DNA of 64,000 nt, from the NCBI GenBank assembly GCA_044892505.1, contig CM097883.1, positions 119,102,001-119,166,000 of the forward strand, written 5' to 3'. Made by a program: the position numbers and the translations under genes. The stretch comes from Schmidtea nova. Taxonomy: Eukaryota. Below are positions 11,457 through 15,899 of this stretch, in pieces (within the stretch, counting starts at the first letter, position 1; the number at the start of each line of letters is the position of its first letter). The notes beneath the pieces were generated by a model. That model saw nothing but the letters and a program-made list of their open reading frames with translations. It made no database searches and had not been told where the DNA came from.

Positions 11457-11798
11457 CTTTTAGCCGGAATTCATAAGAATATTCAAAAGAAACAAATCTA
11501 AATTTCCGTTCCTAAATTCACCCAAATCGAAACTAAATCCAAATCAAAACTAAATTAAAAATCCATTGGAGTATTTAAACAATAAGCCTTAAGTCACAGA
11601 ATATCTCAAAATTCTAAATTCAACTAGAACGCGCACACAGACGCGAATAGACAATACAACCTGAACATGCGCACACAGACGCGATAAAGAGCATCAATAC
11701 CCACGCAGATATATATAAAACCCGCTCCACGCACACAGACGCGGGAGCATCACAAAAACTAAAATGCACCCAATAATCAAACAGCCAAAGTTTGTTCA
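10808..11798 (-). repeat. 991-bp direct repeat (LTR start, spacer and HECT fragment), second copy at 15251-16241
   Basis: Offset 4443 bp. At least 4 substitutions seen (10829/15272, 10920/15363, 11186/15629, 11511/15954). Both copies run into N-gaps. Confidence 0.95.
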
Positions 11799-11832
11799 GT
11801 CAAACTTTGGCTGGAACATTTCCCCCCCCTTG
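11457..11832 (-). mobile_element. Polypurine tract and start of the 3' LTR of a BEL/Pao-derived element
   Basis: Minus strand reads CAAGGGGGGGGAAA followed by TGTTCC at 11818. It then has a 13-bp hairpin (11782-11813), three copies of CGCGTCTGTGTGCG and a TATATATA box. The LTR 3' boundary was not identified. Confidence 0.7.
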
Positions 11833-14800
11833 ATCCCTTCTAGCGGATCAACCGACCTATTCATCTCTGGGGAGCCAACCTTCAGATTCCTAACTTTATT
11901 CTTCCACTTCGGCTTATATTTGTTTTTGTCTTTAAACATTTCTTCGACCAATAATCTGGTACGTTCTTGGATACATACCCTCAAACTTATGGACATTCTC
12001 AGTTCCAAATTTACTGTTGCCAATTTATCGCTAATGCTGTTTATATATCTCGTTCCCACTGCTAACATTTTTTCAGTTTCCGCACAATTCTTTATTTTTT
12101 CTTCTAACCTTTTAATTTCACTTTTATATTCCAATTCGCCCGTTTTTATTTTACTTTCAAGATTTTCTATCTTTGAATGAAGTTGTGTTACTAAATCCGA
12201 CTTATCAACAAGAACTTCATTATCAACAGTTGAACCATTCACAACCTTGTCAAATGATTCCATTTTATTGCCACTAATTGCATCTTTACATCCTATTGGA
12301 AGATAAGCTGACTGCTCACTACCTGTTTTCTCTGCAATTATAACTGGGCAATTTATAAGTTCAGTCGCTTCTTCCTTTTTACATTTCATCCTAGAATTTC
12401 CGATAACATCTTCATAATTTCCTAGATCTGTGTCAAGATCGTTAATTTTTCCATTTTCCCTTTTATCAACATTGGAATTTTCAACTATTCCTTGCCTAAT
12501 ATTTTCACCATTAAAAGAGTTCTCTCCAATAATTTCCTCAAAATTACAATTTTCTTCAATATCGTTAATATTTTCCACAATTTTCTCATCGACAATGCAG
12601 TTTTCTTCGAAATTATTCTCATTTACTGCCTGCTCATTTTTTACTGACATTATAGATTCAATTTCCGTCATTACTTCCTGCACTAATTCGTTTGAAGAAG
12701 TATTTATTCCATCCTCGCCTACAATATCAACCGACTCAGAGTTATCAACTATTTTACTAGACACACCACTATTCACTGCGCTATTCTTACCTCGACCTGA
12801 ATTCAAATCACCACCACCAGTTCGAACCTCACCAAGAACTACTTCCTGAGCTTTAGGTGCAAAACTCTCGATACATTCCTCTTCACACTGTTCTCTTTGA
12901 CAAGTCTCCATTAACGTGTTCACATTTTGTTTCCCACCTCTTAGTGCCGTTATTCGTTCTCCACCCTTACTCGGGTTTCGTTTTACATCATTGCAAGCGG
13001 TTGTAAAGTGTGAGTACCTTTTCCTGTCAACCTTTTCAGCCGCCTTGAAGTTTCTCTGCCCGTCTTGCCAATTGAAATCCTTTTCCTGACCAAATCCATA
13101 TAATATTTCATTTGTCACTCGTATTAGTTCAGCTTCCTTTTGCACCCACTCCTTTAACCGTTTTACTGACTCCTCACTTTCATCTGTTGCTTGCTCTCTT
13201 TTCCATTGCATAAGTAGAGAAGCTGGCAATTTCTTTAACAATTGGTGCAATAGACAGCCTCTCTGAAGGTCCTCTTCTCTTCCAATTTCCTTGAACCGTA
13301 CCTCCATGGATTCCAACAATCCAACGAAACTATCCAAGTCTTTTATTTCTCCTTCGCGAACCGGCCGAAACTTGTCTACAGTTTCTAGCATAATCAGGTA
13401 ACTACGTTCTTCACCTCCGTAACGCCTTTCCAATTTCCCTTTCGCCATCTTGTAGCCTTCGGCGGTATAACCCAGTGGCTCTATCATTCTCAGAGGCTCA
13501 CCTAACAAGTACTGCCTAAGATGCAGCATTTTATCTTCGGCCGTTCCATCTACTTTATCTATTACCGTGTTGAAGGCCGCCTTCCAATTTTCAAACTCGA
13601 CCACTTTCCCATCGAAAATCGGAATCTTAATTTTCTGCAACCGATTTAAACTCTTCTTTTCTATTGGCGCTTCATATTCCGATGTCTTTGACCCCTCGCT
13701 CACAACACTTTGTTCTGTTCTTTTTTGCATTATCTTACCTATCTCTTCTTTTTTTGTTTCCAGGTCACAGATATCTTTTTCCACTAATTCTAACTCCTCC
13801 TTCTTGTTTAATTTGTCACACAGCTCGACAAGTCTTAGCCACTCGTCCAATGTATCCTCAAATTCTTTCTCATATAATACCAGTGTGTCCTTTATTTCCC
13901 CGACCATTTCTGCCAACAATAAGTTACGCGCTCGAGTTACTTTCCATTTTTTAGATCGCCGACGGGTCCATAAACTTTTGAACTCTTCCTCATTATTACC
14001 ACCTCTTAAACGAAGAACAAGATGAAGAGTAGATTCCTTTTGTATGTTGTAATCTGCCAAGATCCTTCCGCCTTCCAATTGTTTACCCGCAAATATCAAT
14101 CTCTGTTGATCAGGTGGGATTCCCTCTTTGTCTTGAATTTTCGTTTTTACCTTTTCTATTGTGTCACTTGATTCAACCTCCAGGGTAATAGTTTTCCCTG
14201 TTAACGTTTTTACAAATATTTGCATTCCCCCTTCCATTCTCAAAACTAGACCGAGAGTTGATTCCTTGGTGGGAATAGTCGTATTTCGATTAATTAACTT
14301 ACTGAAAACGCCGCCCCGAGTTTCAATACCCAACGAAAGCGGTGTAACATCTAGCAATAATACATCAATCACATACTCAGCAAGAACTCCTCCCTGTATT
14401 GCTGCACCCATTGCAACAGCTTCATCTCGATTCACACTCTTACTAAGAACTCTACCGAAAAGTTTCTGTACAGTTTCTTGAACATTAGGCATTCTTGTCA
14501 TCTCACCAACTAACAACACTTCTTTAATGTCCGATGTTTTTACCTCTGCATCTTTAATAGCTTTTTCACAAGGTTCAATTGCTCTCTTAATTAGGTGCTC
14601 CACTAATTGTTCTAATTTTGACCGTGTGAACCTTAAACTCAAATGTTTAGGTCCTGTATTATCCATTGTCAAATATGGAAGATTAATGTGCGTTTGAATA
14701 GCTGATGACAGGTCAATTTTAGCCTTTTCAGCTGCTTCTCTAACTCTCTGTAAAGCCATAAGGACTTTATCAACATCAACGCCTTGATCACATTTAAATT

Positions 14801-15899
14801 CATAAAGAATACTTTGTAAGCGCATATTATCAAAATCTTCCCCACACATTTTATTTTTTCCCATTTCAATTGTATCGCTGCCTGCAACTTCTAAAGTGAT
14901 GGGTTTTCTCGTTAAAGTTTTTAAAGATATGCGCCTCCCCCTGGTCAGTTCATTCCCCAATTGAAAAGAATGCTGGGGCCCATAGCAGCATCTTTTCTGG
15001 TCCCTTAATGGACCCAACCCACCGCAAAACATGGCAAAGGGCAGAGGGGAAAATGCTTCATCCCAAATTACTTTCAAAATTTTACACCATTCATATTTAC
15101 AGAAAACTTCAAATAAAAAGTCAAAAATATTACATTTAAATACCTTGTTCTGGCTGGATAGCCAGAACCATATTCCGAAAGATCCAGAGAGCACGTGGTC
15201 CCCCGATGGGAACCACGCTCTGCTACCAAAAATGTTTCCATCAAAACGCAACATCCTTTCAATTTTATTGTTAAATGAACCGGGGGGAATAACAAAATTA
15301 AGCATAAATATATCCTCAAAATCATCTTGATCGAAATAAAGTAACGTCTGTAATGATTTCCCTAAGGTTGGATTGAGCTCGATTAAATCATCTAGATTAG
15401 CCTTTTCATTGGACAATGTTTTGAACATTACAAGAGGAGAGTGAAGATCAATCATAACATTATTGTAAATTGCAAGACCAAACAATCTACCGATTGCATT
15501 AAACTGCGGTAAATTATCATCAAATATCATTTTGTTAAACCAGCAGAGTCTTGATTCAGGATACATTTCAAAGAGACCATAATCGGGGTTTAAAACTTGA
15601 GGCACAACAAGTAAGAACAATTCCTTCAATACCCCGCCTTCATCTAAAGCATCTTCACCCATGAAATTAACCCTAAATGACCTTTTAAGGTGACATTGAG
15701 AAGCACGCTGCAACTGGCTAACGGTATCACCTAGCAAATTATCTCTTCGTACAGTAATATGAAAACTGCTTTGTGCTACGAAGCATGGTAAATCTTCTGA
15801 CATTAAGCATTTAGCCTCAATTTTCATCAAATGAGTTTTCGTAATACCATCGAATGCGAAAGGATAGTTAAACAATGAAAATTCCATTTTTCGATACAC
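11796..15899 (-). CDS. Chimeric 1367-aa ORF: HECT N-lobe, linker, split ubiquitin containing a mtHSP70 fragment, full ubiquitin, BEL/Pao Gag (DUF1759-like), acidic/Asn region, coiled coil, BEL/Pao integrase C-terminal remnant
   Basis: HECT 15288-15887 ([31 protein letters not shown]). Ub(1-30)-like 14847-14936. mtHSP70 14265-14843 ([46 protein letters not shown]). Ub(63-76)-like 14226-14264. Ub 13998-14225. Gag 13095-13997 ([38 protein letters not shown]). [12 protein letters not shown] near 11880. The listed start is GTG; the first ATG is at 15887. Confidence 0.9.

Follow-up and report, generated by a model that had tools for sequence, protein, structure and literature searches.

How does a retrotransposon come to hold pieces of several host genes in the same uninterrupted frame as its Gag, and what keeps such a frame open? 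The question is raised by a locus within 64,000 nt of the Schmidtea nova genome (GenBank assembly GCA_044892505.1, contig CM097883.1, forward-strand positions 119,102,001 to 119,166,000; this whole stretch is called the window below). A sequence-only reading of the window had noticed there one long frame joining HECT, polyubiquitin, HSP70 and Gag sequences. Following this frame through other copies in the genome, we arrived at an interpretation to which we give a probability of about 0.6: a single frame starts in the 5′ long terminal repeat (LTR), passes through swappable pieces of spliced host messages and a conserved ubiquitin and enters Gag, and host deubiquitinases likely free Gag from this disposable leader.

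Organization of the window copy

The frame lies on the reverse strand (11796-15902) and comprises 1,368 codons from stop to stop, which bears out the ~4.1 kb without a stop described earlier; its first ATG is at 15884. It begins in the last ~650 nt of the 5′ LTR, crosses into the primer-binding site (PBS), and continues through mitochondrial HSP70, ubiquitin and Gag to a stop 20 nt within the 3′ LTR. Self-comparison of the window revealed a direct repeat (10808-11798 versus 15251-16241) of 99.6% identity, with 4 mismatches in 991 positions. The HECT piece lies inside both LTRs, which the sequence-only reading had not recognized. The start of the 5′ LTR falls within a stretch of N, at ~16261 by the offset of the 3′ LTR; both outer LTR ends of this copy are N stretches. 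The layout is as follows, all features being on the reverse strand (-):

11796..15902 (-): long open frame, 1,362 aa counted from the ATG at 15884
15233..16241 (-): 5′ LTR, visible part; direct repeat of the 3′ LTR, with the end ...GAAACA found in the LTR pairs of other copies
15258..15929 (-): LTR cargo, a piece of spliced host HECT E3 mRNA (HERC4-like N-lobe; PF00632; host exon match)
15264..15269 (-): AATAAA, likely polyadenylation signal and likely template-switch point, read in frame as Asn-Lys
15211..15228 (-): primer-binding site, translated in frame as GSRAW
14865..14936 (-): what deletion has left of the head of a first ubiquitin unit, degenerate; its DNA is 83% identical to the first unit (unit 1) in a host tri-ubiquitin gene
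14844..14864 (-): glutathione-reductase remnant of ~7 codons; the piece has ~80 codons in other copies
14260..14848 (-): mitochondrial HSP70 mRNA piece (PF00012), 93.5% to the host gene L082
14226..14267 (-): last 14 codons of the preceding ubiquitin unit (LRMEGG), with no ubiquitin fold upstream
13998..14225 (-): complete ubiquitin ending in LRLRGG and abutting Gag; predicted deubiquitinase cleavage site
12950..13997 (-): BEL/Pao Gag (PF03564), zinc knuckles deleted; DUF1759 at 13191-13616
11883..12915 (-): in-frame acidic, Asn-rich tail, which takes the place of pol in non-autonomous copies
11796..11882 (-): last codons of pol, polypurine tract (PPT, 11819-11831) and frame stop; 77 nt at 82% to the pol end of L162
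10808..11818 (-): visible portion of the 3′ LTR, which starts with TGTT and holds the HECT cargo for the second time

Pfam recognizes in the frame a HECT domain (profile positions 2-120 of 306), HSP70 (218-420 of 599), one ubiquitin and DUF1759, and finds no protease, reverse transcriptase (RT), A17/RNase H or integrase. The earlier description as a Gag-bearing, non-autonomous BEL/Pao element without pol domains thus stands, as does the remark that the HSP70 is partial and that the HECT lacks its C-lobe with the catalytic Cys, without which it is not a functional HECT E3 (in the host, the C-lobe exons lie at C1:172926095-172930828). The polyubiquitin part of the description holds less well: the ‘first ubiquitin’ of this copy is only a 24-residue degenerate head and a 14-residue tail, the unit being whole in copies L028 and L059. 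At the 3′ end, the PPT and the TGTT at 11818 are as described, but the supposed integrase-tail remnant is reduced to the last 77 nt of pol (~23 codons), and the ~340 codons of tail before it gave no Pfam family, no clear Atlas lead and no match to pol. This tail is absent from the pol-bearing copy L162, and both zinc knuckles of the pol-bearing copy are missing from the window Gag. The tail is common to non-autonomous copies of different Gag lineages.

The identity of the smaller leader pieces was checked on copy L041, where the best match of the HSP70 piece among HSP70s in the PDB is mitochondrial HSP70 and the glutathione-reductase piece finds PDB matches to glutathione reductase. At its 3′ junction, the HSP70 piece shares a short sequence with the ubiquitin tail.

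Host messages in the LTRs of a BEL/Pao family

The window copy is not alone. With its ubiquitin-HSP70 region as query, 40 of 1,920 candidates were scored and 39 other copies fetched. A second set of 60 loci was taken from a ubiquitin match list, ranked by ubiquitin score; 45 of the 60 could be parsed, the 15 others being dropped since their PBS or ubiquitin start was not parsed, and this set was excluded from all estimates of ubiquitin conservation. Copies L127-L130, L161 and L162 were chosen for their long frames. LTR pairs, mostly TGTT...AACA, are 96-100% identical in 33 of the 39 copies, and 5-bp target duplications are clear in L014, L015, L028 and L051. Identical junctions recur, between differing flanks, at dozens of sites spread over three chromosomes.

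BEL/Pao elements are characterized by TG...CA LTRs, a 5-bp duplication, a PBS, a PPT and a single Gag-protease-RT-A17-integrase frame. RT and A17 are present in L020, L026 and L034, with integrase in addition in the last two. The order protease-RT-A17/RNase H-integrase (DUF5641) within one frame was found in L026, L034, L161 and L162, and in L161 and L162 a single frame leads from LTR to ubiquitin, Gag, RT, A17 and the DUF5641 integrase tail. The leader is therefore no quirk of non-autonomous copies. The window copy has the DUF1759 Gag; zinc knuckles are found in L161 and L162. Elements measure 5.5-9 kb in the copies examined. Judged by this domain order, with the BEL/Pao placement based on Pfam A17, DUF1759 and DUF5641, the window copy is a non-autonomous member of a BEL/Pao family of LTR retrotransposons that is young and present in many copies. 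Three Gag lineages could be distinguished, 29-44% identical to one another. A ubiquitin with GG at its end precedes Gag in all three, and one of them (L128) lacks HSP70.

To identify the cargo, LTRs were translated in the frame of the PBS. In the first set they hold HECT, CCT1, CDC14 (DSPn), a member of the N6-adenine methyltransferase family and the N-terminus of calmodulin, singly or as mosaics. The second set adds RNA polymerase III RPC1, Angel, PAC1, an ABCD transporter, U2SURP and at least three unnamed pieces, which brings the host gene families named in the LTR slot to ten. Downstream of the PBS, the leader holds pieces of ubiquitin, glutathione reductase and mitochondrial HSP70. The capture slot is the LTR itself; its cargo is interchangeable and drawn from a range wider than proteostasis genes.

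Two cargoes document their origin directly. The parent of the HECT piece is at G000:C1:172.93 Mb, with exons 93-96% identical to the LTR piece; the host introns of 40 nt, 44 nt and 5.0 kb are missing from the cargo, which runs, more diverged, into the next exon. The best named relatives of the piece are HERC4-like, the best of them a trematode protein at 43%. Ten HECT loci from a family search were also considered as parent, and none was. The methyltransferase cargo starts at the host ATG and covers almost all of the host coding sequence; two GT-AG introns are gone and the exons match at ~99%. Its junction with the LTR falls on a AATAAAAT common to both, so that the host stop is bypassed, and the cargo occurs in 21 LTRs at 96-100%. 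Since both cargoes lack the host introns, they come from mRNA, in line with the earlier inference that the element had captured intronless host sequence. The methyltransferase (PF10237) LTR subfamily includes L032, L158 and L160, fused in frame, the host gene being L157 at G000:C1:307.40 Mb; among the cargoes, this one alone may amount to an enzyme domain in full.

For the other pieces, identities to the host are 93.5% of DNA for HSP70 (gene at G000:C3:30.87 Mb), 95-96% for CCT1 and 83-85% for ubiquitin, compared with units of a tri-ubiquitin gene; these three cross no host intron and are uninformative on intron loss. The parent of the calmodulin piece was not pinned down, the best locus reaching 88% over 72 nt. 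The parental genes expected from the window copy were thus located for HECT, HSP70 and ubiquitin, and the leader proved to hold in addition the glutathione-reductase piece, which had been overlooked.

A further recurrent feature is an AATAAA 32-44 nt before the PBS. It is present in 44 of 50 5′ LTRs, compared with 5 of 405 background windows; the second set has it in 42 of 45 members. At the HECT cargo junction this AATAAA is shared with the host sequence. Short shared sequences, possibly chance matches, are seen at three capture junctions. A TATA match is absent from most LTRs.

In many copies the cargo has decayed into short pieces, scrambled or repeated, of which some are deleted and others duplicated. 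In one subfamily (L024, L025, L047, L049, L217 and L222), the HECT cargo is reduced to a 38-codon unit, repeated in tandem and in frame after a calmodulin start.

Selection, a possible mechanism and its rivals

The distance from PBS to HSP70 is a multiple of three in 40 of 47 cases and for 18 of 25 distinct lengths (p = 9e-5), a count in which tandem units enter twice and a few loci had been chosen for long frames; for the control distance, from LTR start to first Met, this is so in 11 of 38. In the second set, PBS and ubiquitin are in frame in 35 of 45 copies and the interval is fully open in 30 of 45. The frame from the LTR Met through ubiquitin is open in 21 of 37 similarity-ranked copies, 13 of which extend beyond 1,100 codons. 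HECT, HSP70 and tail together have 274 shared non-synonymous variants, of which one is a stop; ~17 stops would be expected. Together these data argue that the open frame is under selection.

The modules behave differently. Among copies, the ratio of non-synonymous to synonymous polymorphism (pN/pS) is 0.21-0.25 for ubiquitin (51 copies) and 0.11-0.18 for Gag, compared with 0.65-0.89 for HSP70, 0.62-0.79 for HECT and 0.74-0.83 for the tail. The difference between ubiquitin and HSP70 is significant (p = 0.007), that between ubiquitin and Gag is not (p = 0.24). Taken with the near-identity of the window LTRs, these values agree with the earlier suggestion of an element that is very young or under selection, and they are not near 1 in all modules. 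Comparison with host genes gave synonymous and non-synonymous divergences (dS, dN) and their ratio omega (dN/dS). The second, pre-Gag ubiquitin retains 71 of 76 residues, with dS 1.34, dN 0.047 and omega 0.03. For the first ubiquitin, 18-19 of 76 residues differ (dS 0.36, omega 0.38). Values are dS 0.09-0.13 and omega 0.44-0.69 (p 0.01-0.31) for HSP70, dS 0.06 and omega 0.54 for HECT, and dS 0.08-0.15 and omega 0.16-0.24 (p up to 0.013) for CCT1. Since its dS is the highest and its omega the lowest of the pieces compared, the pre-Gag ubiquitin is the oldest capture, and the only one that is clearly conserved; HSP70 and CCT1 may be under some constraint.

Of 46 aligned C-termini of this ubiquitin, 44 read LRLRGG with a next residue that is not Pro, and in the three lineages the ubiquitin ends in LRLRGG, LRLNGG and LRLCGG. 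Its own Met has given way to Leu, Ile or Thr in 11 of the 57 cases and is therefore no required start.

How such an element might work can be outlined from these features. Most of the LTR, 600-900 nt with the cargo inside, would be transcribed repeat (R), as suggested by the AATAAA at its fixed place ~40 nt upstream of the PBS and by the preservation of the frame across the PBS; the AATAAA would then be the poly(A) signal. The RT, while copying this long R, could switch to a host mRNA packaged along with it wherever the two have a short sequence in common, in many cases AATAAAAT, after which both progeny LTRs would carry the cargo. Translation would begin at the cargo AUG, so that only frame-preserving captures would spread. 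Host deubiquitinases would cut after Gly76 and release Gag, or Gag-Pol, with a fixed N-terminus; with such a cut, the amino-acid content of the cargo would be nearly irrelevant and the leader need only stay open. That non-autonomous copies keep their frame open through the tail to the 3′ LTR might, as a guess, reflect avoidance of nonsense-mediated decay. Low contig depth at the LTR start was considered as a mark of the transcript boundary and rejected: the four sequencing runs are DNA, since their contigs cover host introns. All four belong to a single study, perhaps the one behind the assembly, and they were left out of the supporting evidence.

Several observations weigh against this scheme. 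The frame is lost between LTR Met and ubiquitin in 16 of the 37 similarity-ranked copies. Single-copy stops are also below expectation (8 versus 23), which suggests a sampling bias to young copies. Some frameshifts are shared, a +1 near the HECT start by six copies and a +1 in ubiquitin by two. Arg74 is changed in two of the three lineages (LRLNGG, LRLCGG), and loss of Arg74 may impair deubiquitinase cleavage. Finally, by the omega of HSP70 and CCT1 the cargo is not fully neutral, for which silent changes on the host side account in part.

What the cargo is for may be seen otherwise. Housekeeping sequence at the 5′ end of the RNA, beside the promoter, would be hard for PIWI-interacting RNAs (piRNAs) to target without self-harm; the cargo would then be a disguise against silencing, and fresh captures would spread by escaping existing piRNAs. 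We consider this possible but somewhat doubtful. It is compatible with ubiquitin cleavage, which would make swapping free. The named cargoes are indeed conserved housekeeping genes, and young ones are widespread: besides the 21 methyltransferase LTRs, another cargo had all 40 of its scored matches at 99-100%. CCT1 cargo occurs in two Gag lineages (L128, L048), and a camouflage idea is published for plant transposable elements (in the excerpt considered of PMC13317346). Yet co-packaging would in any case favour abundant mRNAs, drift can also produce bursts of young subfamilies, and a disguise sits poorly with cargo that in many copies has decayed into short pieces, scrambled or repeated. A reading that combines both ideas can be entertained tentatively: the LTR would be an exchangeable cassette of host sequence, the old ubiquitin cut site would uncouple Gag from it, and new disguises would spread past piRNA silencing, scattering gene pieces.

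Ubiquitin might, instead of being cut, stay on Gag as a binding surface, for example for recruitment of endosomal sorting complexes required for transport (ESCRT) or for particle routing. In retroviruses, a ubiquitin fused to Gag is able to stand in for a late domain, and in the present family the entire ubiquitin surface is conserved, beyond the tail, while the Arg74 changes in two lineages would also fit. We nevertheless find it unlikely: GG at the Gag junction and a non-Pro residue after it are kept in all three lineages, the uncut protein would put 300-700 residues of variable leader on the capsid, and deubiquitinases also need the whole ubiquitin fold.

The sequence-only reading had imagined that the HECT and HSP70 pieces work as proteins, as chaperone or ubiquitin modules packaged into capsids or as dominant negatives. 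Omega below 1 against host genes in some copies, the presence of HSP70 in most sampled copies, the several proteostasis genes among the cargoes and the nearly complete methyltransferase speak for it; the frequency of HSP70 is inflated, since the sample was drawn with an HSP70 query. Against it, pN/pS among copies is 0.62-0.89, close to neutral, cuts run through domains, deletion and duplication are free, and HSP70 is missing or halved in some copies (L128, L161). The proposal is thus poorly supported, and we regard it as very improbable. Finally, a chimeric assembly or a chance single event, the doubt about contiguity raised for the window copy, is refuted by the same junctions at dozens of differently flanked loci on three chromosomes and keeps virtually no probability.

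Relation to known systems and further observations

With Belpaoviridae (BEL/Pao) the family shares LTR pairs, a 5-bp target duplication, PBS, PPT, DUF1759 Gag, A17 and DUF5641. Unlike them, its frame opens in the LTR and crosses the PBS, ubiquitin stands ahead of Gag and host mRNA lies in the LTR. Ubiquitin annotation was absent from three distant BEL polyproteins retrieved by a weak alignment search. Outside this genome, all 150 matches listed in a search for a ubiquitin-Gag fusion were polyubiquitin, the Gag search was empty, and Atlas gave DUF1759 leads only, all below 0.9.

The literature comparisons below draw on excerpts of the sources cited. LTR-mediated retroposition by template switching, with capture of mRNA including multi-gene chimeras, is established (Tan et al. 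2016, PMC5131818), and one such case in mosquito involves a BEL element (PMC5131818). In maize Bs1, retrocopies are internal, in one to five copies (PMC5131818, PMC13317346). Like these, the present family has spliced host pieces from several parents, frequent in-frame fusion and further copying of non-autonomous members; the short sequences shared at three of its junctions may be a further parallel. It differs from those internal, low-copy cases in that the slot is the LTR, only the ubiquitin, glutathione-reductase and HSP70 pieces being internal; cargo is turned over repeatedly at high copy number and in pol-bearing members as well, and the Gag frame necessarily begins with the chimera.

A second parallel is found in cytopathic pestiviruses, which carry insertions of cellular ubiquitin (PMC8310069, PMC13517609). 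In bovine viral diarrhoea virus, cellular ubiquitin hydrolases cut the captured ubiquitin and give an authentic N-terminus of NS3 (PMC8310069). In both systems a captured host ubiquitin abuts a viral or Gag protein, with other scraps of host mRNA in front. Pestiviruses are RNA viruses without reverse transcription and their insertions are sporadic, whereas the fusion here is old (dS 1.3) and present in three Gag lineages, with cleavage predicted. Among planarian elements, the gypsy elements Burro/GYPSM1 (~30 kb) have an N-terminal Gag followed by host-like domains including a Ubi2/SUMO motif (PMC6431247). These too are LTR elements with host-like domains in one polyprotein; the present family differs by its BEL/Pao domains, its 5.5-9 kb, a Gag behind the leader and swappable mRNA pieces borne by the LTR. 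In the excerpted main text of the planarian genome paper, the words BEL and Pao are absent (PMC11410931). A BEL/Pao element that carries host mRNA in its LTRs or fuses ubiquitin to Gag did not appear in the full-text literature searched; repeat libraries such as Repbase and Dfam, and those of other flatworms, may hold the family.

LTRs are normally the non-coding ends of an element, and gene capture by LTR elements has been described as rare and internal. In this family capture is routine, located in the LTR and tied to the element's only frame. This suggests that the processing of a retrotransposon polyprotein can begin with a host protease. As sister subfamilies differ mainly in the host gene they carry, they form a natural series for testing whether cargo shields an element from small-RNA silencing. 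For annotation, first-look searches gave 2602, 1826, 806 and 639 candidates for ubiquitin, HSP70, HECT and CCT1; these are not copy numbers, and hundreds to thousands of them are transposon cargo, not host genes. If the combined cassette and disguise reading were true, its by-product would be hundreds of promoter-linked pieces of host genes, some nearly whole genes, spread over the genome.

The 18-nt PBS complements the 3′ end of tRNA-like sequences with a CAT anticodon (L165, L166). ARAGORN called no tRNA gene in four of four loci tested, these two included, and an Rfam search gave nothing credible. In the window, ~14971-14985 (-) contains a 9-nt exact complement to the anticodon arm of the primer tRNA, which may be due to chance. 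From G000:C1:510.09 Mb onward, a long tandem array of 458-bp period carries a Met-tRNA motif, with 1,038 matches genome-wide.

The LTR opens with a 13-bp hairpin (window 11782-11813, -; z = -4.9, with 0 of 200 shuffles equally stable), followed by a repeated GCGTCTGTGTGCGC-like motif that is found in the LTR starts of other copies as well. A 71-bp near-perfect repeat flanks the element (10598-10668 and 16640-16710), too long and too distant for a target duplication. Many copies are housed in (ATT)n microsatellites (flanks of L016, L019, L023, L025, L058 and others), which suggests a target preference, and head-to-tail arrays with shared LTRs occur at G000:C2:10.83-10.86 Mb, C3:86.54-86.56 Mb and C1:96.31-96.33 Mb. 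Elsewhere in the window, we take 17048-17305, 19037-22535, 32978-35533 and 37652-38326 to resemble a GIY-YIG endonuclease, a multi-frame gypsy pol and hAT-type transposases.

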